Virus record (IMG/VR): IMGVR_UViG_3300045988_122351
Span: 1 to 33,663 of that record
Length of the DNA: 33,663 nt
Reading direction: 5' to 3' (one strand)
From: a virus
Taxonomy: Duplodnaviria; Heunggongvirae; Uroviricota; Caudoviricetes
Part shown: positions 6,999-30,179 of the stretch, piece by piece
Layout of the letters: every line of letters starts with the position of its first letter
Numbering within the stretch: position 1 is the first letter of the stretch
The notes under the pieces: generated by a model
Seen by the model: only the letters and a program-made list of their open reading frames with translations
Database searches by the model: none
What the model was told of the DNA's origin: nothing
Made by a program: the position numbers and the translations under genes

Positions 6999-7126
6999 AG
7001 CGAAAAGTGGACATTAGAGTTACAAAAGCAAGTTTAAATCATCCAAAATATTACAATGTCCTTATCTATCTGATATCGTTATGATAAAAAGCTCCTGAAT
7101 ATAATCGATAGTAGGTGGTTATTTCC

Positions 7127-7504
7127 ATGAAATCAATTTTAGAGGTTTTTACTCAAGGAAATACTAAAGAAAAACTGGCTGTTATCGCCGATCTCACAAC
7201 CATTGCGGGAATATCGATTGCAACTATTATTGCTGGTTTGTTAACCCTAGTTGCAAAAACAGATAAACTAGATATTGGAAATCTGTTTGGAGTTGTCATA
7301 ATATCTCTGCTCGGATTGGCTGGTGTTTGCTGTTTTGTGGCCTTATTTATTTGGGTTATAACCCAAATGTCTAAACCATGGGGAACACCTCGGGGGGTTC
7401 AGCCCTTAGTTAAGTGTGCTATTTCCCTTATCTTTATCTGTATGTTTTTACTGGCTGTCTTTACATTTTATGAGTTTATTTCTTCGATGAGCATACGCTA
7501 TTGA
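7127..7504 (+). CDS. Small AT-rich membrane protein, about 3 predicted TM helices (125 aa); function unknown
   Basis: ORF 7115..7504; start moved to ATG 7127 after SD-like taggtgg (7112..7118); long hydrophobic stretches; low GC. Confidence 0.6.
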   Translation: MKSILEVFTQGNTKEKLAVIADLTTIAGISIATIIAGLLTLVAKTDKLDIGNLFGVVIISLLGLAGVCCFVALFIWVITQMSKPWGTPRGVQPLVKCAISLIFICMFLLAVFTFYEFISSMSIRY

Positions 7505-7526
7505 ATATAAAATCAGCCCCCATAAC

Positions 7527-8111
7527 TTAAAAGAGACCTTCTATATCGACTTCAATGCCCAAATAACGGACTGTGCTTTCCAGTTTCTTATGGCCCAACA
7601 GAAGTTGGATCACCCGGAGACTCTTGGTTTTCTTGTAGATTAAGTAAGGTTTTGTTCTTCTCATGGAATGTGTGCTGTACAGCGAATCTTCGAGACCAAG
7701 CTTTTCTACCCACCCATGAAAAATTCGGTTGTATTGCCGGGTTGATATATGGTGGTTAGTTCCGACCCGAGAGCGGAACAGGAAGCCTTTACTATGCAAG
7801 TTGCCGAGCTTTATCAATGCAGTAACCGCTTCCCTTGTCCCTTTGGTTATCTCAAATTGGACAGGGCTGCCGGTTTTCTGTTGCAACACCGTTGCTCTGC
7901 TTGAGACAGAACTGCCATATGCAGCATCTGATACTTTGAGTTTGACCAAATCACAGCCCCGTAGCTTAGTGTCCAAAGCCATGTTGAACAGAGCTAGATC
8001 GCGTGTTTTACCTTCCAACTCAAGTCTAATCCGGATCCCCCAGATATGAGATATCTGAAGTGGCCTTTTTTGACCGATGGTACGGTCTTTATTCCACGGT
8101 GACGTTTTCAT
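7527..8111 (-). CDS. Small tyrosine site-specific recombinase, catalytic domain only, FimB/FimE-sized (194 aa)
   Basis: Motifs in order: LRGCDL (Arg), HSMRRT (H-x-x-R), LLGH, VRY (Tyr); parallels the FimE layout. Start set at ATG 8111 with AGGAG 8 nt upstream; the track's TTG at 8213 would give 228 aa. Confidence 0.7.
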   Translation of the reverse strand: MKTSPWNKDRTIGQKRPLQISHIWGIRIRLELEGKTRDLALFNMALDTKLRGCDLVKLKVSDAAYGSSVSSRATVLQQKTGSPVQFEITKGTREAVTALIKLGNLHSKGFLFRSRVGTNHHISTRQYNRIFHGWVEKLGLEDSLYSTHSMRRTKPYLIYKKTKSLRVIQLLLGHKKLESTVRYLGIEVDIEGLF

Positions 8112-8217
8112 ATTCAAATCTCCTGCAATGTGGGAGATTTGAGTATGGTTGTCTCTCAAGAGCGAAAATAAGTCAACTATCACTAGTTGTTGCGCATGTA
8201 CGTATTCTGTCAATTAA

Positions 8218-9060
8218 TTATTGACAATCATCAATTCTGGAATGATCAAAATCATCATATCGAATTATAGTCTGGTTGACTGTATCTATTGTTGGTGTCA
8301 TTTCTGTTATAATATCCTGATAACCTAAAGAGTTAAATACATTTACTAAGGCCTCACACCGAAGGGCCGTAGCAATTACAAAATTATAAATTGCCAGCCG
8401 TTTATTTTCTTGTTTAACTGCAAGAATGAATTCGATAGCAGTATTTTCATCACTTTGGATTGCATTATATAGAGATACTATATTTACCATATCATCAGAG
8501 AATGTATGTATTGAATCACAAAGGGGAACGTAATGGGCATGATAGTGTGTTTCCCAGCCAATTAATTCAAAAAGTTTTCTGGTTCCTGGATATTCAGGTG
8601 TATTTGGCCACAATCTATTAAATAGATCAGTTAGTTCTTTTCCCATGCGAATCCTTTCATTTGCTGCTGGATTAGTCATTCCTTTGGATTTTAAACACTC
8701 CAGCCACCGTTTTCCATTACTATGAACTAATTTCTTACTAGCCTTGAGTAATGCTTGTGCATTTTCGCCATCATCTATTGCTATATAAAATTGATTGGCA
8801 GCCTGTTCTATTATAACCCTAGCTAATACTTCCGATGCTGAAAAGGCTCCTATATTCAAAGAAGAGATAGCCTGATTACTAAGTTCATTCAGTACATTAA
8901 AGTACTGTAAGACCATCAATTTTTGTTCCACACCCTTTAGGTTGTCTATTTTATTTTTATGCTCCTCAAATTTTGCATGGATATATTTATTTATCGCGGC
9001 TATTTTTTTTACATCTTCGTCAAGATCAAACGGGCAACGTCCAAACAATTCTTTTTTCAT
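8218..9060 (-). CDS. Hypothetical protein (280 aa), His-rich patch ETHYHAHYVPLCDSIH; function unknown
   Basis: Clean 280-aa ORF, ATG at 9060 with AGGAG 6-7 nt upstream; AT-rich; immediately upstream of the recombinase on the same strand. Confidence 0.65.
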   Translation of the reverse strand: MKKELFGRCPFDLDEDVKKIAAINKYIHAKFEEHKNKIDNLKGVEQKLMVLQYFNVLNELSNQAISSLNIGAFSASEVLARVIIEQAANQFYIAIDDGENAQALLKASKKLVHSNGKRWLECLKSKGMTNPAANERIRMGKELTDLFNRLWPNTPEYPGTRKLFELIGWETHYHAHYVPLCDSIHTFSDDMVNIVSLYNAIQSDENTAIEFILAVKQENKRLAIYNFVIATALRCEALVNVFNSLGYQDIITEMTPTIDTVNQTIIRYDDFDHSRIDDCQ

Positions 9061-14194: not shown

Positions 14195-14542
14195 TCAACT
14201 CACAGGGATGGTTAACGAAAGTGGCTGGCCGGTGTCGTTGTGCTGACCGGTTAACGTGACCGTCATTCGCCCGTCAAAACTGCGCTCAGTGGTGACGGAT
14301 GACAGGGTGACGCGGGGTTCCCATTTCAGCACCGCCATGTAACAGGCGACCTTAATCTGCAACTCAAGCGCCGGAGTCTGCGGCTGGTCAATCATTGACG
14401 CCAGCAACGAGCCGTAATCACGACGCATCACCCGCGAGCCGACCGGTGTGCGCAGGATATCGCCGATACTCTGGCTGATATGCTCAAGGTCAGTGACAGT
14501 CAGGCCATCACTGCGATTCATTCCGAGATAACGCGCAGTCAT
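14195..14542 (-). CDS. W: Baseplate protein W (115 aa)
   Basis: 115-aa ORF between V and J. Confidence 0.8.
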   Translation of the reverse strand: MTARYLGMNRSDGLTVTDLEHISQSIGDILRTPVGSRVMRRDYGSLLASMIDQPQTPALELQIKVACYMAVLKWEPRVTLSSVTTERSFDGRMTVTLTGQHNDTGQPLSLTIPVS

Positions 14543-15174
14543 AGAGGTCCCCCGGTTGTGCCGCCGCTGTCGCCGGGGTGTTTATGGGTATGCAGTACCT
14601 TACCGTTTGATGAGAGTTCACCGCCGGTGTGTTCAATGTTGCCGCGCATCGTCCCGCCCTTCTGTACTTCCAGCGTGCCGGTAATCAGTCTGTTGGTGCA
14701 GACCACCTCCGGGGTGTCCAGGGTGATGCGGGTTGACGCTTTCACCATGACTACCGGCACCGTGGCGGTAACAGAATCAGAAGCCGTCACGCTGGCCGTT
14801 TTAATTCCGCTTACCATCAGTGCACTGGTTTCAGGTTCATACTCAATCACCGCCCCGTCAGGGAAACGTATGTGCAGGGCATCCGCCGACGCAGACGGCG
14901 GAGGGTTATCGCCGGAATAAATCCCCGGCAGAACGAACGCCGTGTCGAGTTCACCGCCCACGGCCAGAATCAGCACCTGTTCCCCCACGGAAGGTGCCCA
15001 CCATGTGCGTGAACGTCCGGCACGATGGGTCAGCCACTGAAGCCAGTCGGTGCACATGCCGCCGGTCTGCACACGGCAGCGACCGGCGTTAAGGTCGGTT
15101 TCGACGATAATGCCGGGGCGTATCATGTTGCGCAGTGCGCGCGCGAGTTCCTGGATATTTGCGAGTGTTTTCAT
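14539..15174 (-). CDS. V: Baseplate spike protein V (211 aa)
   Basis: ORF 14539..15210; start set at internal Met (MKTLANIQELARALRNM...) to give 211 aa; cat at 15172..15174. Confidence 0.8.
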   Translation of the reverse strand: MKTLANIQELARALRNMIRPGIIVETDLNAGRCRVQTGGMCTDWLQWLTHRAGRSRTWWAPSVGEQVLILAVGGELDTAFVLPGIYSGDNPPPSASADALHIRFPDGAVIEYEPETSALMVSGIKTASVTASDSVTATVPVVMVKASTRITLDTPEVVCTNRLITGTLEVQKGGTMRGNIEHTGGELSSNGKVLHTHKHPGDSGGTTGGPL

Positions 15175-15307
15175 AAGATCTAGCATGCTGCTGAGAACTG
15201 ATGAGAACAATAAAAGAGTGTTTTTCTAAGGTTGACACAACACTCCATTTGAAGTGAATATAATGATTACTTAACTGGCAAAAAAACATCCTCACTAATT
15301 GGAGCCA

Positions 15308-16399
15308 ATGGATACACGCATGTCAGACATTCTAATTACTTATGATGAACGGAAAGATAAATTTGAGTCCTATGCCCTTACTCTTAAATCGTTATTAACC
15401 ACGTTAATTCGCAATGAAAAAATTTCAATTCACTCACTTGAATCAAGAGTTAAAACAAAAAAAAGCCTTGAAGGTAAGATTAATAAAAAGGGAAAATACA
15501 AGTCTATAGATGATATTACTGATATCGTTGGTATCAGGATCATCACACATTATGCTGATGATGTTGATAAGATAGCTGCTATAGTTGAAAAGGAGTTCAC
15601 CATTGACCAAGAGAACTCTATTGATAAAAGAACCTCAATTGCGCCTGATAAATTTGGTTACCTATCACTTCATTATATAGTAACTTTAAACTCAACCAGA
15701 ACAAACTTAAAAGAATATGAAGTATATAAAAACATCAAAGCCGAATTACAAATACGATCAATCCTTCAGCATGCCTGGGCGGAGATTGAACACGACATTG
15801 GTTATAAGTCGGCCACAGGACTGCCTAATGAAATAAGAAGATACTTTTCACGCTTAGCTGGTCTTTTAGAAATGGCCGATGATGAATTTATTAAAATCAG
15901 AAAAAAGATTTCTGAACGGCAGAAAGAGGTTGCAAAAGAACTAGAGCAAGGAACTAGTGATTCAGTTTTAGATATTTTCACTTTGGATGAGTTCTTAAAC
16001 ACAAGTCGAATTATGAGTGAACTTTCAGAAGAGATAAAAGAAAAAACAGGAATCACAGTACATGGCCGATACAAGGATAAAGATTTGGGATACCTACTAA
16101 ATGGTTTAAACCTAGCCAACATAACTACAATAGAACAACTCAATCAAAAACTCTCACAAATGAAAAAGCAGATCGTAGATAGAATATTCTGCTTCGGAGA
16201 ACCATTTATTAATTATTGCAGAGAAACCCCCATGCCAAAAGAAGCTCTTTTGAGTTATTTATGTCAAATTATCGTTGCGTTTCAAAACTCACCTTCGTTA
16301 GAATCTGAATTTAATAACAAAGCAGGTTTAAATCTGAAAAACAGCAATATCTCCGATTTTTTCTCGAATATAAGAGAAAACATAAGCACACAACCTTAG
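15308..16399 (+). CDS. RelA/SpoT-family nucleotidyltransferase (small alarmone synthetase-like, toxSAS), probable single-gene CapRel-like fused toxin-antitoxin (about 363 aa)
   Basis: Synthetase motifs in order: SRVKTKKSLEGKI, DIVGIRIIT, FGYLSLHY, ELQIRSILQHAWAEIEHDIGYK; about 170-aa C-terminal extension; no room for a separate antitoxin gene. Start uncertain (TTG 15299, ATG 15308, ATG 15320). Confidence 0.75.
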   Translation: MDTRMSDILITYDERKDKFESYALTLKSLLTTLIRNEKISIHSLESRVKTKKSLEGKINKKGKYKSIDDITDIVGIRIITHYADDVDKIAAIVEKEFTIDQENSIDKRTSIAPDKFGYLSLHYIVTLNSTRTNLKEYEVYKNIKAELQIRSILQHAWAEIEHDIGYKSATGLPNEIRRYFSRLAGLLEMADDEFIKIRKKISERQKEVAKELEQGTSDSVLDIFTLDEFLNTSRIMSELSEEIKEKTGITVHGRYKDKDLGYLLNGLNLANITTIEQLNQKLSQMKKQIVDRIFCFGEPFINYCRETPMPKEALLSYLCQIIVAFQNSPSLESEFNNKAGLNLKNSNISDFFSNIRENISTQP

Positions 16400-16479: not shown

Positions 16480-16932
16480 CTAACGCTCAAGGTGAGCCAG
16501 GATAATCTCTTCAATCATCTGCACATCCTCACCGGTAAAGCCGAGCAGAGGACGCGCCGGATAATCAATTTTCTTACCGTCTTTCCGGGTTTCTTCCGAC
16601 AGACCGAACTGATGCACACTGGCGATTTTCGGTGACTTTCCGCCGTAAAACTCCATTGATGCCTGTTCTGGGCTGGCGCGGATATGCAAAAAACGACTGG
16701 TGATAAGTTTCGCAAACATTTTTCGCTTAACACGACCGGTCTTTTTTCTGGCGCTCTGCTGCTGGCGTGGTGCGTAGGGTGTGCCGTCCGGGGCTTTCTG
16801 TGCCATCACCCGGCACTGCTGACTCTGCCGCAGATGTTTCGCCAGTTCGGTGCTCAGTCGCCGACGCCCTGATGGTGACAGTGATTCAATCAGCCCGGTC
16901 AGCCGGTCTTCAAAACGCTTAAACTCATTCAT
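16480..16932 (-). CDS. S: Tail completion protein S (150 aa)
   Basis: 150-aa ORF downstream of R. Confidence 0.8.
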   Translation of the reverse strand: MNEFKRFEDRLTGLIESLSPSGRRRLSTELAKHLRQSQQCRVMAQKAPDGTPYAPRQQQSARKKTGRVKRKMFAKLITSRFLHIRASPEQASMEFYGGKSPKIASVHQFGLSEETRKDGKKIDYPARPLLGFTGEDVQMIEEIILAHLER

Positions 16933-24626: not shown

Positions 24627-25660
24627 TGAGCAAGAAAGAAGGGAAAACACCGCAGCCAGCGGCAAAAACAATCACCGCCAGCGCCCCGAAAATGGAAGCA
24701 TTCACCTTTGGCGAGCCGGTGCCGGTACTCGACCGCCGTGACATTCTGGATTACGTCGAATGCATCAGTAACGGCAGATGGTATGAGCCGCCGGTCAGCT
24801 TTACCGGTCTGGCAAAAAGCCTGCGTGCTGCCGTGCATCACAGCTCACCGATTTACGTCAAACGCAATATTCTGGCCTCAACATTTATCCCGCATCCGTG
24901 GCTTTCGCAACAGGATTTCAGCCGCTTTGTGCTGGATTTTCTGGTGTTCGGTAATGCGTTTCTGGAAAAGCGTTACAGCACCACCGGTAAGGTCATCAGA
25001 CTGGAAACCTCACCGGCAAAATATACCCGCCGTGGTGTGGAAGAGGATGTTTACTGGTGGGTGCCGTCCTTCAACGAGCCGACACCTTTCACGCCCGGTT
25101 CCGTGTTTCACCTGCTGGAGCCGGATATTAATCAGGAGCTGTACGGCCTGCCGGAATACCTCAGCGCCCTTAACTCTGCCTGGCTGAATGAGTCGGCCAC
25201 GCTGTTCCGCCGCAAGTATTACGAAAACGGCGCACATGCCGGATACATCATGTACGTCACCGATGCCGTGCAGGATCGCAACGATATCGAAATGCTTCGC
25301 GAAAACATGGTGAAGTCGAAAGGCCGCAACAACTTTAAAAATCTGTTTCTCTATGCCCCACAAGGGAAAGCCGACGGCATTAAAATTATCCCGCTCAGTG
25401 AAGTGGCGACGAAGGACGATTTTTTTAATATCAAAAAAGCCAGTGCCGCAGACCTGCTGGACGCCCACCGCATCCCCTTTCAGTTGATGGGCGGCAAGCC
25501 GGAGAACGTCGGGTCGCTGGGTGATATTGAGAAAGTGGCAAAGGTCTTTGTCCGCAATGAGCTTATCCCGTTACAGGACAGGATCCGAGAGATAAACGGC
25601 TGGCTCGGTCAGGAGGTCATCCGCTTTAAAAACTACTCACTGGACACTGACAACGACTGA
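24626..25660 (+). CDS. Q: Portal protein Q (344 aa)
   Basis: 344-aa ORF whose start overlaps the P stop (ATGA); followed by terminator and cos. Confidence 0.85.
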   Translation: MSKKEGKTPQPAAKTITASAPKMEAFTFGEPVPVLDRRDILDYVECISNGRWYEPPVSFTGLAKSLRAAVHHSSPIYVKRNILASTFIPHPWLSQQDFSRFVLDFLVFGNAFLEKRYSTTGKVIRLETSPAKYTRRGVEEDVYWWVPSFNEPTPFTPGSVFHLLEPDINQELYGLPEYLSALNSAWLNESATLFRRKYYENGAHAGYIMYVTDAVQDRNDIEMLRENMVKSKGRNNFKNLFLYAPQGKADGIKIIPLSEVATKDDFFNIKKASAADLLDAHRIPFQLMGGKPENVGSLGDIEKVAKVFVRNELIPLQDRIREINGWLGQEVIRFKNYSLDTDND

Positions 25661-25664
25661 ACAT

Positions 25665-25687
25665 CGCCGCCTGCGGGCGGCTTTTTT
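25665..25687 (+). terminator. Rho-independent terminator after Q
   Basis: GC-rich hairpin gccgcc / ggcggc (loop tgcg) followed by tttttt at 25682..25687. Confidence 0.7.
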
Positions 25688-25829
25688 ACATCCCGTCATC
25701 ACGCCCTCACACGCTCACCACCGCACAAAACACCCCTTAGACACACCAACGCCCCGACGCACAATCTAAACGCCATCACGACGCGCTCAGACGCTGAAAA
25801 AATAAAATCAGCACCACCGCCAGCGCGCA

Positions 25830-25848
25830 GTGCTTTCCCCGCCTCGCC
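25830..25848. other. cos site (19-nt cohesive-end sequence)
   Basis: gtgctttccccgcctcgcc is the reverse complement of the P2 cohesive end GGCGAGGCGGGGAAAGCAC as I recall it; lies in the noncoding gap next to Q. Confidence 0.75.
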
Positions 25849-25975
25849 CGCCCGCTTCATGGGGCGGTTTTGATGCGGAGACGCCCCTCCCTAAAATAGC
25901 ATGACATCTGACCGCATCTAAAAAAAATAGAGGGTCTAATACAACGCATTTAAATGCAGCTAAAGATGCAAAGAC

Positions 25976-26599
25976 TCATACTAACTTGTCTATTGAAATT
26001 ACAAGCTTTTCGATGAAGTTCTTAACTACTACCATATCATCACCAGTTATGGGCCAAGGCTCACGAGGTGTAATTGGTTGCATGTCACCTTCATGTGCTA
26101 TCTTATTACGTCGATCAACAATCGCATTCAGATTTAATCTCAGTGACTTAGATTCTAAATCGGCATTACTATTCGTAGCACCTTGATCTATTGCAACCTC
26201 TCTCCACAAGGAAATATTTGAAATCAGCCTAATTCCATCAGCAATAGATTCACTGGTTTGATACGTTTGAATCCCAAGTTGTCGCCTAACTTCTAAGTCA
26301 TAAATTTGGTCACGAGTCCAAGCGTTGTTAAAAATATTATTCATAACACTATGGGGCATTGTAAACTTATCGTATTTCTGCGTACTAGCCCTCCTTCCCT
26401 GAAAAATCTCAAGCATCCGCTGCGCGACAAGTTCATGAATATATAAATCTAAAGCAGAAACTCTAGCAACCCACTCAGCTCTCAGAATTTCTCGAGAATC
26501 AAATACACTCGAAAAATTAGTAGAAGTATAAGCATATGTCACAGATAACAAATCACATCTAATCCAAGCACGGTCAAATATCGATTTTGGCGTTGACAT
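25976..26599 (-). CDS. Hypothetical protein with C-terminal HEPN-like R-x4-H motif (207 aa); candidate RNase effector
   Basis: Motif VDRRNKIAHEGD near the C-terminus resembles the RNxxxHE signature of HepT-type HEPN proteins; AT-rich; 3 bp after the upstream ATPase gene. Confidence 0.55.
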   Translation of the reverse strand: MSTPKSIFDRAWIRCDLLSVTYAYTSTNFSSVFDSREILRAEWVARVSALDLYIHELVAQRMLEIFQGRRASTQKYDKFTMPHSVMNNIFNNAWTRDQIYDLEVRRQLGIQTYQTSESIADGIRLISNISLWREVAIDQGATNSNADLESKSLRLNLNAIVDRRNKIAHEGDMQPITPREPWPITGDDMVVVKNFIEKLVISIDKLV

Positions 26600-26602
26600 A
26601 CT

Positions 26603-27646
26603 TCAATCTCTTGTCAGGGCGATAACCCTTTCTGCACAAGTGTCAAATGCAGCAGAAAATACAGTCATATTTTTTTCCGTCTGATCCCAAACAGCGCCTT
26701 TCTGACCAGTCTGTTGGGCTGTCAGTGTGTAGACTGGAACTTGAAATTCCTGAGACATAGCAATCAGACTATTGAAATCAGAGACTTCCATTATTGGGTC
26801 AGAAGGAGGCATCCCTGCTTTTTGCTCAAACTCGACTACATCCAACATATCAAACTCAACAAGTTTCGGGATTAGCAAAGAAATTAAGTTATCTCGAAGT
26901 TCATCAATCCATTTTTGGAAGGCCGCAGATGCCTGACCATTGCGTGGTCTATACTTTTGGACGATAGAACCTATAAATTTCACGTTAGACTCAGGGAATG
27001 GATAGTTAGCATTCTGGAGCAACTCCATTCGTGAAGCCATGTTTGCCCATTGTTTCCATCTTGGTAAAGTACGAGCGAGAGAAGAAAGGGCCATCGACGA
27101 GAAATAATCAGGATGAAGAGGTACGATAAAATAATCTGATGTAGTTAAAATGTTTTGGTTCAATGGCCCCAGGCTCGGGCTCATATCAACAATCACATAA
27201 TCTGCATTTACTTTTTCAGCAGTTAGGTCAAACAAATACCTGATAGAACCAGGAAGGTTTTTAAGTGGTAATAATGACCCCGTTAATTCTTGAGCTACAC
27301 CTAATGTAGTTTCATACTCAGAAAGCCCAATATGGCCGGCAAGAAGATGCAAGTTTGCATTACCCTCGATATCAAACACTTCTGCAGGTTCAATCGCACT
27401 TGGTTTAGACTCAAAAGCAGGAGAAAGGGCGTCACGAATATTATTGGCTACTGGTTGATTATAAATCTGTTCTAAATCCGCAATGCCTCTAAATCCAAGA
27501 ATCATTCCGGTAAGATTACATTGTGGATCACAATCAGCTAGCAAAACCTTATGACCTTTCTCAGCCAACTTCCAACCTAAGTTAAACGCAGTAGTAGTTT
27601 TACTTACTCCACCCTTATGATTAAACAAACAGATTACCTTCGCCAT
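26603..27646 (-). CDS. ParA/MinD-family P-loop ATPase with C-terminal extension (347 aa)
   Basis: Deviant Walker A KGGVSKTT at residues 11-18, DCDPQCN motif, Walker B-like YVIVDMSP; about 100 extra C-terminal residues; no adjacent ParB-like gene. Confidence 0.75.
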   Translation of the reverse strand: MAKVICLFNHKGGVSKTTTAFNLGWKLAEKGHKVLLADCDPQCNLTGMILGFRGIADLEQIYNQPVANNIRDALSPAFESKPSAIEPAEVFDIEGNANLHLLAGHIGLSEYETTLGVAQELTGSLLPLKNLPGSIRYLFDLTAEKVNADYVIVDMSPSLGPLNQNILTTSDYFIVPLHPDYFSSMALSSLARTLPRWKQWANMASRMELLQNANYPFPESNVKFIGSIVQKYRPRNGQASAAFQKWIDELRDNLISLLIPKLVEFDMLDVVEFEQKAGMPPSDPIMEVSDFNSLIAMSQEFQVPVYTLTAQQTGQKGAVWDQTEKNMTVFSAAFDTCAERVIALTRD

Positions 27647-27844
27647 TATGCAACGCCCTTAACCGACAGATGTGTAGTACCCCATCATAGAACGTATATT
27701 CTGCCACAGCCAGTGAATTAAAACTAAACCTGTAAAGTGTCAGATATTCACATTCATCAGATTCTAAGTTTTATCTTACGTCCACCGCGATTTAGGAAGA
27801 TTTTCGGATTTTATCAAATTGTATGATGATACAACGTTATGCGA

Positions 27845-29914
27845 TTAAAATCGCTCACCACTTCTTTGCTGTCGATATCGCCGCTGTATATGGCATTTCA
27901 AAACTTCCCTAAATACCAACACAGCTTCGGGGTCATCCCATGCTATAACACCGTCATCAACCAGATTAAGCACGGCTGCAGCATGTTCAGAAGGTGTGGG
28001 AGCCGGTAACGAAGTATCACTGCCGGTGAGCTTTCCACAGTTATTGACAGGACTCCGAGGCGCGGCGATGCCGCTTTTTAAAGTCAAAGGCTCAACGACC
28101 GGAACTTTCGGCACAATGCGCCAGTCCGTCGTTCTGGTGATATGAATATGACGCGCGCCGAGATGCGGCGCGTAAATGCCGACCACTCTCTCAACTTCTT
28201 CCTCGTACTCGTTAACGTCATCCGACGGGCTACGGGCAACCCTGACAGTCTGACAATCGCGCGGGACATTTGCCCCACCCTGCGCGCTGATATACAACGC
28301 AAAATCACCACTGTCTGCGGCAGCGCGAGCAGCCTCGACGCGTTCGTCAAACTCATCAGCAATACTGACGCCGCGAGGCAATTTGCGTAGTTCACGGTAA
28401 GCCCCCATTGTCGGCAGTCCAACCGTTTTAAATTGCGGGATGCGCCACGTTGACGCCCATGCGGTAACAGCCGCGGCAGTATCTTTAAGCGGCTTACCGG
28501 TATCGTTATCGAGCTGACCATCCAGTGCATAGCCGTCGATATTTTTTGAAATGTATTTCGCGATATATCCCGCAGCACCGCCCCGGTTAAGGTGTTTTGC
28601 CTGAAAACGGTTTCGCGCAGCTCCTCTTTCATCGCCATCCTCTTTGAGCGCATAGCGACGCATGATTTCGATAATCTGGTTACGCTGGCGCGGATTACAA
28701 AAAAGCATCATATGCCAGTGCGGCGTTCCGTCGTGGTGTGGCTCGACGACACGCAAACCGTAGACCTGTAAATCATTATCCTTGAATGCCGTGCGCATCA
28801 GGCTCCAGATACGGCAGAGATAACGCTGCGCATCCTTTGGATTAAATGCCTCATCGTTCCAGCCGTGATTAAGCTGCACGGTTTTACTTTCGCCTTTTCC
28901 GACCTGACGTGTCGGGTGATACTTTGACGGCGCGGTCAGCGTGATAAACATCCCCACATCACCCTCTGCGGCGGCGTAACGCTCAATACCGGCAATGGTG
29001 TTCATCAGCTCCATCCGGCGAATTTCAGGATTAGAAATACTGCCCATCACCTTACTGATAAGGTCGATGCGCTCGCCGGTTTCCCTGTTTTCGAGGTCAC
29101 ACGATTTAAGAAATTCCAGATTTGCCTGGCGGCGCGCACGCACATCACGAATGGCATGTTTACTGGCATAAGGAGAACGGTCTTTATTGACCTCCCCGAC
29201 AGCTATCAGTAACGCCTCATGCCAGCGCATACGCTGGCCTTTAAGCTGATGAGTCCACCACTCATCGTTAAACAGGCGGGCAATGGCAGAATATGCCTGC
29301 CTCGTGGTCATCTGTCCTTTACGGTATTTTTTCCAGTAGAGAGGGGAAATATTGAAAGCACGTGCAGCGCCAGCAACATGACCATACAGGTGAGCCTGCG
29401 CCTCATCCGTAAACAGCGATTCTTTTTCGCCATGCGCATCCACCCAAGCATCGCTGAGTTCCTCATACATCATGAAAAGCTGCGATGAGATACGGGCGGC
29501 AAACTTTTTCAGCTCCTTGTCATTCATTCCCGGCAGTCGCGCATAGTGGTCACGCTCTGCCAGAAACAGCAACGACGCGTCGGTGTTCATTTCATGGCGC
29601 TGATTCACACGCTCAATGCGCGGCCATAAACGACGCTGAAAAGTGGATGTGAGGAAATAAAACCCGTGCACCGGGCTTTTATTGCGCCGGATGTAGTCAT
29701 AGCGTGAAGTAAACAGCGAGCGCAAAAAGTAAGGCAGGCGGTTAATCGTGGATAAAACACCTTGCACCTGACGCATCTCGTCACGTGTAAGGGGTCTTTC
29801 GCGCCCGACAGCCTCGCGTGGCGCGTTCCATGCATAAGCACCGGTAAACGCCTTACCGGTGCCTGCAGCAAATGCTGACGGAGGGACAAAACGCCCGGAG
29901 GCTTTAACGGCCAT
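27845..29914 (-). CDS. A: Replication initiation protein A, HUH rolling-circle endonuclease (689 aa as called)
   Basis: ORF 27845..29956; start set at MAVKASGRF...; HUH-type motif TPHWHMMLF and paired tyrosines YIAKYISK; C-terminus shorter than I recall for P2 A. Confidence 0.85.
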   Translation of the reverse strand: MAVKASGRFVPPSAFAAGTGKAFTGAYAWNAPREAVGRERPLTRDEMRQVQGVLSTINRLPYFLRSLFTSRYDYIRRNKSPVHGFYFLTSTFQRRLWPRIERVNQRHEMNTDASLLFLAERDHYARLPGMNDKELKKFAARISSQLFMMYEELSDAWVDAHGEKESLFTDEAQAHLYGHVAGAARAFNISPLYWKKYRKGQMTTRQAYSAIARLFNDEWWTHQLKGQRMRWHEALLIAVGEVNKDRSPYASKHAIRDVRARRQANLEFLKSCDLENRETGERIDLISKVMGSISNPEIRRMELMNTIAGIERYAAAEGDVGMFITLTAPSKYHPTRQVGKGESKTVQLNHGWNDEAFNPKDAQRYLCRIWSLMRTAFKDNDLQVYGLRVVEPHHDGTPHWHMMLFCNPRQRNQIIEIMRRYALKEDGDERGAARNRFQAKHLNRGGAAGYIAKYISKNIDGYALDGQLDNDTGKPLKDTAAAVTAWASTWRIPQFKTVGLPTMGAYRELRKLPRGVSIADEFDERVEAARAAADSGDFALYISAQGGANVPRDCQTVRVARSPSDDVNEYEEEVERVVGIYAPHLGARHIHITRTTDWRIVPKVPVVEPLTLKSGIAAPRSPVNNCGKLTGSDTSLPAPTPSEHAAAVLNLVDDGVIAWDDPEAVLVFREVLKCHIQRRYRQQRSGERF

Positions 29915-30179
29915 ATGAGCCAAAAGCCTCTGAACAACGCCTGCTGAGTTGCTCAACCTGCGCGTTTAAATCAGCAAAAGACTTTGCGCTTCCGGTCAGA
30001 ATATCGTGATGCATCAGGCCGGAAACGAGCTGGCTTAATTTCGGGTAATAACCAACCACCGCCAGCCATTCCTGACCGGCGTTTTTACCGCTTTCCGCTC
30101 TCTTTTTCTCGTGGAGAATAAACTGAAAGCTGTCACTGGTAACGACATAACGTTCGCCAATTTCAATACGAAAACTCAT
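29904..30179 (-). CDS. Hypothetical early-operon protein (91 aa), P2 orf83 position
   Basis: ORF just upstream of A with short overlap; position as in the P2 early operon. Confidence 0.55.
   Translation of the reverse strand: MSFRIEIGERYVVTSDSFQFILHEKKRAESGKNAGQEWLAVVGYYPKLSQLVSGLMHHDILTGSAKSFADLNAQVEQLSRRCSEAFGSYGR

Follow-up and report, generated by a model that had tools for sequence, protein, structure and literature searches.

A gene for a ParA/Soj-type ATPase adjoining a gene for a HEPN protein is an arrangement that was independently predicted in 2013 to be a toxin–antitoxin dyad, with the ATPase as antitoxin and a ribonuclease (RNase) toxin controlled by a nucleotide-dependent conformational change or by phosphorylation; the table of that study lists its RiboL-PSP-HEPN entry as an 'operon with ParB' (Anantharaman, Makarova, Burroughs, Koonin, Aravind 2013, Biol Direct 8:15; PMC3710099). 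Further relatives come from phage cargo sites. The cos-proximal gpA–gpQ region of P2-like phages, which in reference P2 holds old and tin, is an experimentally established anti-phage hotspot (Rousset et al. 2022; PMC9122126). The same work catalogues a HEPN_RiboL-PSP plus AAA_31 pair in the P4 hotspot (system #47; 25 occurrences, annotated only 'Likely a RNAse'; Table S1B) and, in the P2 hotspot of 29 E. coli P2-like prophages, an ATPase with a RelA_SpoT protein (system #110; Table S5B); its table of tested systems includes no AAA_31 system (Rousset et al. 2022; PMC9122126). Here we analyze a cassette that occupies the P2 gpA–gpQ hotspot in a 33,663-nt stretch of caudoviricete DNA (IMG/VR virus record IMGVR_UViG_3300045988_122351; hereafter the window, to whose full length all coordinates refer), and whose two genes, both on the minus strand, encode a ParA-like ATPase and a HEPN protein. 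A sequence-only reading had singled out two open reading frames (ORFs) of 347 and 207 amino acids, 3 bp apart between cos and gene A, as an AT-rich candidate defence operon with the motifs KGGVSKTT, DCDPQCN and RRNKIAHE; the genes, their placement, their composition and the motifs (residues 11-18, 38-44 and 163-170, respectively) are all borne out, and profile searches agree with its ParA-family and HEPN assignments. We lean modestly towards the view that the pair is an ATPase-gated HEPN RNase toxin module that acts in abortive infection or exclusion; within this view, our confidence in a HEPN toxin module controlled by the ATPase is much higher than our confidence in an anti-phage phenotype.

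A near-obligate ATPase–HEPN pair

The upstream gene (26603..27646, minus strand; stop codon TGA at 26603-26605) encodes a 347-aa protein that, judged by profile searches and structural modelling, is an ATPase of the ParA/MinD (SIMIBI) superfamily with a ParA/Soj fold and intact motifs. It matches Pfam AAA_31 (E 6.6e-33), CbiA (E 2.8e-16) and phrog_164, 'ParA-like partition protein' (E 2.2e-45); NCBIfam returned only sub-threshold generic ParA, RepA and BcsQ matches. The family alignment has a mean column identity of 75%, and among 45 homologs all eight residues of the deviant Walker A motif K11-G-G-V-S-K16-T-T (codons 27593..27616, minus strand) are invariant, including the signature lysine K11 and the P-loop lysine K16, as are D38 and D40-P-Q-C-N-L-T of Walker A' and D154 of Walker B. 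In Foldseek searches the AlphaFold2 monomer model (predicted local distance difference test, pLDDT, 82.4) is closest to DIP2308 (3pg5), followed by Soj, ParA, McdA and MinD, with probability 1.00. DIP2308, from Corynebacterium diphtheriae, is the closest protein of solved structure; it has 361 aa, comes from structural genomics and is uncharacterised, and its Walker A' has the same unusual sequence, DCDPQCN, as that of the ATPase described here. The ATPase is ~90 residues longer than Soj, and sequence alignments to Soj end at about residue 200, short of the DNA-binding arginine region. Because Walker A begins at residue 11, there is no apparent N-terminal helix-turn-helix (HTH). The family conserves a basic motif, Q230-K-Y-R-P-R235.

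The ATPase stop codon is separated by three bases (26600..26602, minus strand) from the ATG of the second gene (25976..26599, minus strand), a spacing that suggests translational coupling. The 207-aa product is, by profile and predicted fold, a member of the HEPN superfamily and of its RiboL-PSP-HEPN family, and is thus predicted to have RNase activity. It scores 45.7 bits against PF18735 (HEPN_RiboL-PSP; cut-off 28.4, E 9.3e-12, residues 11-206) and 16.2 bits, under the cut-off of 26.8, against PF18737 (the MAE_18760 type). Across 52 HEPN homologs R163, R164, I167, H169, E170, G171 and D172 are invariant; these residues include the Rx4H motif R164-N-K-I-A-H169 (codons 26093..26110, minus strand), which is predicted to be catalytic and is retained in HEPN proteins of filamentous Pf phages that are only 30% identical. 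The monomer model, built like all of our structure predictions from alignments without Pf-derived rows, is all-helical with a pLDDT of 94.9, has the HEPN fold, and finds its best fold matches among HEPN toxins. Distant partners of the ATPase from five other lineages score 28.7-52.7 bits against PF18735, and all of those tested are members of that family.

The two genes travel together. We assembled one set of loci through the HEPN protein (21 loci from Serratia, Ralstonia, Enterobacter, Morganella, Pf phages and nine viral contigs) and another through the ATPase, by a profile scan of 100,044 genomes at one genome per species that returned ~486 relatives, of which the best 80 were taken and 78 were evaluable. 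In 21 of the 21 HEPN-ascertained loci the ATPase gene immediately precedes the HEPN gene on the same strand, and a HEPN gene lies directly downstream in 74 of the 78 ATPase-ascertained species loci, which span more than 10 phyla. These best 80 relatives are 48-68% identical over their full length; their hosts are alpha-, beta-, gamma- and delta-proteobacteria, Acidobacteria, Poribacteria, Planctomycetes, Cyanobacteria, Actinomycetota, Chloroflexi, Paenibacillus, Spirochaetes, Nitrospirae and others. Spacing between the two genes in homologs ranges from +3 to +8 nt, or is replaced by overlaps of 4, 8, 14 or 17 nt. Pairwise identities of the two proteins are correlated (r = 0.86, Mantel p = 0.001, 72 pairs), with means of 58% for the ATPase and 41% for the HEPN protein, which diverges ~1.4x faster. 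A profile search of 1.84 billion representatives recovered ~1,270 for the HEPN family (701 at E <= 1e-10), and the best 150 of these are stand-alone proteins of 97-315 aa, mostly ~200 aa. Altogether the pairing is near-obligate, and the two genes co-diverge as one unit.

Departures from the standard arrangement were also recorded. In four loci from Poribacteria metagenome-assembled genomes (MAGs; L062, L071, L079 and L080) a conserved ATPase stands without a HEPN partner. L071 and L080 have a large convergent ORF just downstream of the ATPase (565 and 776 aa, both starting MSI(D/N)(A/T)DRERL) and L079 has a 1,055-aa ORF ~2 kb downstream; these may be alternative partners of the ATPase. Six further loci (L040, L057, L069, L083, L096 and L097) have a truncated or two-ORF HEPN gene beside an intact ATPase gene, reflecting either pseudogenes or MAG assembly errors. 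In total the HEPN gene is absent or fragmentary beside an intact ATPase at ~10 loci and the reverse was seen once (L039, a split ATPase with an intact HEPN gene). We considered this asymmetry as evidence that the ATPase is the antitoxin and do not rely on it, because the sample was chosen on ATPase quality and many of the loci are MAGs. The intact ATPases in all 21 HEPN-ascertained loci lend weak support to that assignment.

Insertion sites, carriers and boundaries

The cassette is foreign, rare cargo in the gpA–gpQ locus. To its left lie portal gene Q and terminase gene P, and to its right P2 replication gene A (27845..29956, minus strand; PF05840 Phage_GPA, E 5.9e-124). The left landmark, outside the cassette, is the 19-mer GGCGAGGCGGGGAAAGCAC (25830..25848, minus strand), the P2 cos sequence; it matches the window exactly and only once, with zero matches expected by chance. 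The segment 25700-25876 is 94-99% identical to P2-like phages, and P2 homology ends at 25876. The guanine-plus-cytosine (GC) fraction is 0.39-0.41 over 26001-28000 compared with 0.52-0.58 in the flanks. The ATPase and HEPN genes are the only ORFs in the insert, whose DNA has no near-identical match among 50,697 phage records and 5,426 complete E. coli genomes. The protein collection includes a partial E. coli protein at 100% identity (P0011), which suggests that E. coli is the host.

An extended -10 promoter for the operon is plausible from the sequence. In a relaxed scan the AT-rich intergenic region upstream of the operon (27647..27844, minus strand) holds the candidate extended -10 promoter TGATAAAAT, with TG at 27816-27815, TAAAAT at 27813-27808 and a -35-like TTGTAT at 27834-27829; it ends at 27808, past the stop of gene A. 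A stricter consensus scan from gene A to the operon found neither promoter nor terminator, so read-through from gene A is also possible. A terminator-like hairpin with a T-rich tail (25811..25826, minus strand) falls within the conserved flank of P2 cos, ~150 nt past the end of the HEPN gene.

Related pairs sit in comparable places and are carried by temperate elements of four kinds. A pair with 73% identity occurs in a P2-like prophage of Morganella, flanked by the tail-fibre assembly and sheath genes; this position is Z/fun, the other P2 cargo site. In Enterobacter the pair abuts the end of a P2-like prophage and in one genome stands beside a SEFIR/TIR gene. The pair is found in the accessory region of filamentous Pf prophages of Pseudomonas, close to the integrase gene in phage WX-TY, and in nine IMG/VR viral contigs. 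The GenBank record of the Pf1-type prophage AY324828.1 annotates the ATPase, Orf317, as 'putative regulatory protein ... similar to Soj (ParA)' and leaves the downstream HEPN gene (L006 4001-4528) without annotation.

Outside phages the cassette is a solitary insert, as is typical of toxin–antitoxin cassettes; in Serratia and Ralstonia it is a lone insert among housekeeping genes. We surveyed 270 nearest neighbours, two per side, in ~70 species. No family occurred more than three times, and most neighbours were core metabolism or translation genes. Among plasmids, the ATPase family was found in 12 of 72,556 records, all of them Burkholderia megaplasmids and at ~27% identity. A 358-aa solo relative of the ATPase lies beside a CI-like XRE repressor in a lambdoid prophage of E. 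coli IHE3034 (NC_017628.1 563741-564817; L103 5076-6152); it is not followed by a HEPN gene, and farther on comes a Cys-rich convergent ORF of 171 aa. A fragment matching this solo ATPase is present in 113 of the 5,426 complete E. coli genomes.

The same prophage carries other cargo. A 366-aa RelA_SpoT-domain protein (15299-16399, plus strand; PF04607 E 1.9e-21; PADLOC candidate PDC-S33 E 1e-16) is the product of an AT-rich insert (GC fraction 0.35-0.42) that separates a baseplate-spike gene (14539-15210) from a tail gene (16480-16932). Its size and layout are reminiscent of fused toxSAS defence proteins such as CapRel, and the gene would be a second candidate defence cargo. A third AT-rich island (7115-9060; GC ~0.36) occupies the Z/fun position beside the tail-fibre assembly gene. 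Its ORFs are those of a 280-aa DUF5677 protein (8218-9060, minus strand), a short 228-aa Phage_integrase-family protein (7527-8213, minus strand) and a 129-aa protein rich in hydrophobic stretches, possibly membrane-associated (7115-7504, plus strand); PADLOC has no match to any of the three.

A proposed ATP-gated toxin and its competitors

The RNase site of HEPN proteins forms from two Rx4-6H motifs across a dimer interface, and a partner enzyme or domain restrains HEPN toxins, examples being MntA-HepT, RnlB-RnlA and the ATPase domain of PrrC. ParA/MinD ATPases in turn dimerise on ATP through their signature lysine. We envision the operon as a toxin module of two components, self-contained and horizontally mobile, in which the HEPN protein would be a latent ribonuclease and the co-translated ParA-like ATPase its obligate controller. 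The ATPase would bind the HEPN protein, and its ATP-dependent dimer switch would prevent the HEPN active site from forming. Disturbance of the ATPase, by a phage factor, loss of a ligand or a change in nucleotide state, could then lead to RNA cleavage and cell arrest. In the P2 cos-proximal hotspot such a module would act as abortive infection or exclusion and shield the lysogen population from other phages, with addiction to the cassette as a side effect. This gating model draws on the known behaviour of HEPN and ParA proteins together with the intact ATP switch, the invariant HEPN motif, the near-obligate pairing and co-divergence, the solitary insertion outside phages, the independent toxin–antitoxin prediction of 2013, the cargo sites, the absence of partition features, and the exchange of effectors around the same ATPase clade, which is accompanied by a differing HEPN protein in #47 and by RelA_SpoT in #110.

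Several observations weigh against this model. Matches to defence models among the 270 neighbours are sparse in raw counts, scattered singles that never recur (type II/III restriction-modification, HEC-01, PDC-S02/S03, mad2/3, NucC and AriA), so the usual defence-island signature appears to be missing, and any signal of enrichment beside known defence genes is weak at best. The expectation in the sequence-only reading of a candidate defence system stands in one part and not in another: the tin/old locus is an established P2 anti-phage hotspot, and the pair recurs at Z/fun and in Pf prophages and has a relative in the P4 hotspot, but the homologs show no clear defence-island context, their neighbours across phyla being mostly housekeeping genes. 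The ATPase, a sensor in that reading, may instead be an antitoxin. There is no ATPase–HEPN fusion among the best 150 of the ~1,270 HEPN representatives, and solo ATPases exist, in the four Poribacteria loci and one E. coli lambdoid prophage. PADLOC 2.0.0 gives no match to the HEPN protein at E <= 1 and matches the ATPase only with PDC-M28B, over Walker A (residues 3-40). We found no experimental study of such a pair in the open-access full-text literature (PubMed Central and bioRxiv), and a subscription-only report is possible. Finally, the ATPase is more conserved than the HEPN protein, which is unusual for an antitoxin or phage sensor and suggests a conserved ligand (DNA or a nucleotide, perhaps) or an enzymatic role such as the phosphorylation envisaged in 2013.

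This conservation would be explained by a broader and more speculative idea, which we put forward tentatively. The extended ParA-like ATPase clade could be a modular ATP-driven switch of temperate phages and satellites that gates interchangeable toxins (two unrelated RiboL-PSP-HEPN lineages and RelA_SpoT) and senses phage takeover; by analogy with other ParA-type proteins, sensing would proceed through ATP-dependent dimerisation on nucleoid DNA or through capture by a phage protein. If so, the clade would represent a new class of abortive-infection sensor, distinct from the STAND, ABC/OLD and CARF types.

The pair could instead be a purely selfish addiction module that, by post-segregational killing, stabilises itself together with the prophage, Pf episome or chromosomal island that carries it and has no anti-phage role. 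Solitary two-gene inserts among housekeeping genes in many phyla, without clear defence-island enrichment, are what such a module would leave behind; the prediction of 2013 was of a toxin–antitoxin system (PMC3710099), and addiction would benefit Pf phages, which replicate as episomes. However, the cassette has been placed repeatedly in P2 and P4 anti-phage cargo sites and is nearly absent from plasmids, where addiction modules are classically found, and post-segregational killing brings little to an integrated P2 prophage. On balance we regard addiction without defence as unlikely, though it deserves to be taken seriously. A further alternative is immunity against other mobile DNA, by exclusion of plasmids or satellites, or control of the life cycle and lysogeny of the carrier, with the ATPase reading the state of DNA or the nucleoid and the HEPN protein degrading a primer or regulatory RNA. 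ATPases of the ParA type as a rule recognise DNA or mobile-element partner proteins, plasmid-clearing HEPN proteins (Ishtar) were reported in 2026, the Pf record carries its regulatory label, and a relative lies beside a CI-like repressor in the lambdoid prophage. Yet that label is an annotator's guess only, the sequence alignment to Soj, which ends at about residue 200, gives no position for a DNA-binding determinant in the ATPase, and chromosomal copies lie far from any mobile element; we consider this explanation rather doubtful. Improbable, in our view, is a housekeeping or stress-related RNA-processing pair with no role in conflict, in which a nucleoside triphosphatase (NTPase) or kinase would work with a HEPN nuclease as in eukaryotic Las1-Grc3. 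Such partnerships are known there, and the ATPase is unusually conserved across phyla in both full-length and column identity, but the distribution is patchy (~486 matches in 100,044 genomes), and the insert is AT-rich and of foreign composition, absent from the 5,426 complete E. coli genomes and carried by phages and satellites.

Genuine partition, with the ATPase segregating a plasmid-state P2-like genome and the 207-aa protein serving as a non-canonical adaptor in place of ParB, is largely refuted, and we give it very little credence. The fold, the motifs and the PHROG label point towards partition, and roughly one P2-like phage in four has a putative plasmid partitioning system at this hotspot (Rousset et al. 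2022; PMC9122126). However, a search of 25600-28100 for direct and inverted repeats returned only two-copy chance matches and no iterated or centromere-like repeats, and neither the Pfam matches nor the best fold matches of the 207-aa protein hold an HTH or ParB signal. The remark in the sequence-only reading that neither a ParB-like gene nor a repeat array can be seen thus holds for the ORFs of the insert and for this interval, and neither of two findings that it had named as fatal to the defence proposal, an HTH/ParB fold in the 207-aa protein or centromere repeats, turned up when looked for. An adaptor would have no need of the invariant, predicted catalytic Rx4H motif; most copies are single chromosomal inserts in diverse phyla, and the ATPase family is practically absent from the 72,556 plasmids. 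We rejected a ParABS-type assignment on these grounds: no repeats, no ParB or HTH partner, and near-absence from plasmids.

Returning to the proposed ATP-gated toxin, the P2 cos-proximal hotspot has a proven record as a source of anti-phage systems, and the cassette is among its occupants, while the pair is tightly coupled and unusually widespread, with ATPase relatives in ~486 species-level genomes and more than 10 phyla. If the ATPase does gate an RNase, the ParA/MinD switch, otherwise known for positioning DNA or protein cargo, would join the regulators of immunity and toxins. Even if the pair were only an addiction module, it would be a new type of enzyme antitoxin for HEPN toxins, alongside MNT. 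The operon is compact (1.7 kb) and offers clear residues for point mutants: K11 or K16 in the ATPase and R164 or H169 in the HEPN protein.

Comparison with described systems

Systems that control a toxin with a different enzyme are the more distant comparisons. The modelled HEPN protein structurally resembles HepT of the type VII HepT-MntA pair but is ~70 residues longer and 6-12% identical; HepT is controlled through AMPylation by an MNT nucleotidyltransferase, which is unrelated to the ParA-fold ATPase found here. P2 Old, which sits at this very locus in reference P2, PARIS AriA/AriB, Gabija and the ATPase-regulated, HEPN-like anticodon nucleases PrrC and RloC would share the proposed logic by analogy, an NTPase controlling a nuclease that arrests the cell on infection. 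However, their ATPases are of the ABC/OLD type (AAA_15/21) and their nucleases are TOPRIM or fused to the ATPase, whereas the ATPase here belongs to the SIMIBI/ParA group and has no sequence relationship with them. ParABS and type Ib partition systems (Soj-Spo0J, ParF-ParG and delta-omega of pSM19035) share the ATPase fold, the deviant Walker A motif with its signature lysine, Walker A' and Walker B; unlike them, the ATPase here is ~90 residues longer, is nearly absent from plasmids, and is partnered by a HEPN protein rather than by an adaptor with a DNA-binding fold and repeats. The sequence-only reading had found no named system to fit, and PADLOC indeed provides no applicable model; assignment to a named defence system was rejected, since the PDC-M28B match reaches the level of Walker A only and the NCBIfam matches are sub-threshold.

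The hotspot systems are closer. The ATPase of P2-hotspot system #110 is a full-architecture relative (31% identity over residues 3-308, E 3e-35) from the same hotspot, but its effector is a RelA_SpoT protein (small alarmone synthetase-like) and not a HEPN protein; the ATPase clade thus occurs with a non-HEPN, toxin-type effector. The ATPase of P4-hotspot system #47 is closer still, 44% identical over the full length (E 3e-99) and in the same clade, and shares LFNHKGGVSKTTT, DPQCNLT, QKYRPRN and DFNSLIA with the ATPase described here. Like the cassette, #47 has a RiboL-PSP-type HEPN protein with RNxIxHE and lies in a cos-adjacent anti-phage hotspot, although its carrier is P4 and not P2; outside the RNxIxHE motif the two HEPN proteins have no significant similarity, and that of #47 is below the Pfam threshold. 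Table S1B of the same catalogue also contains P4-hotspot system #43, a HEPN plus AAA_31 entry with 34 occurrences, a 146-aa HEPN protein and a larger ATPase with a KGGVGR-type Walker A, which looks like an independent ParA-like and HEPN combination (Rousset et al. 2022, Table S1B).

The dyad predicted in 2013 has the same architecture, a ParA/Soj-type ATPase gene adjoining a stand-alone HEPN gene, and that adjacency is found here in 21 of 21 and 74 of 78 loci. Its HEPN protein belongs to the MAE_18760 family, whereas the one described here and all distant partners tested belong to PF18735; because PF18737 stays below threshold, the cassette is not a member of that exact dyad. The MAE_18760 and RiboL-PSP families are nevertheless related, so that the design is the same and the branch differs, and by analogy the working model of 2013 would carry over. 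The sequence-only reading could not match the design to a named system, yet the design had been recognised earlier: the ParA/Soj and HEPN dyad was predicted in 2013 and a homologous pair was catalogued in 2022. The cassette is accordingly less unprecedented than that reading held, and joins a known but uncharacterised kind rather than founding a categorically new one. If its ATPase does gate an RNase, then P4-hotspot system #47, P2-hotspot system #110 and the cassette in this window would form one family.

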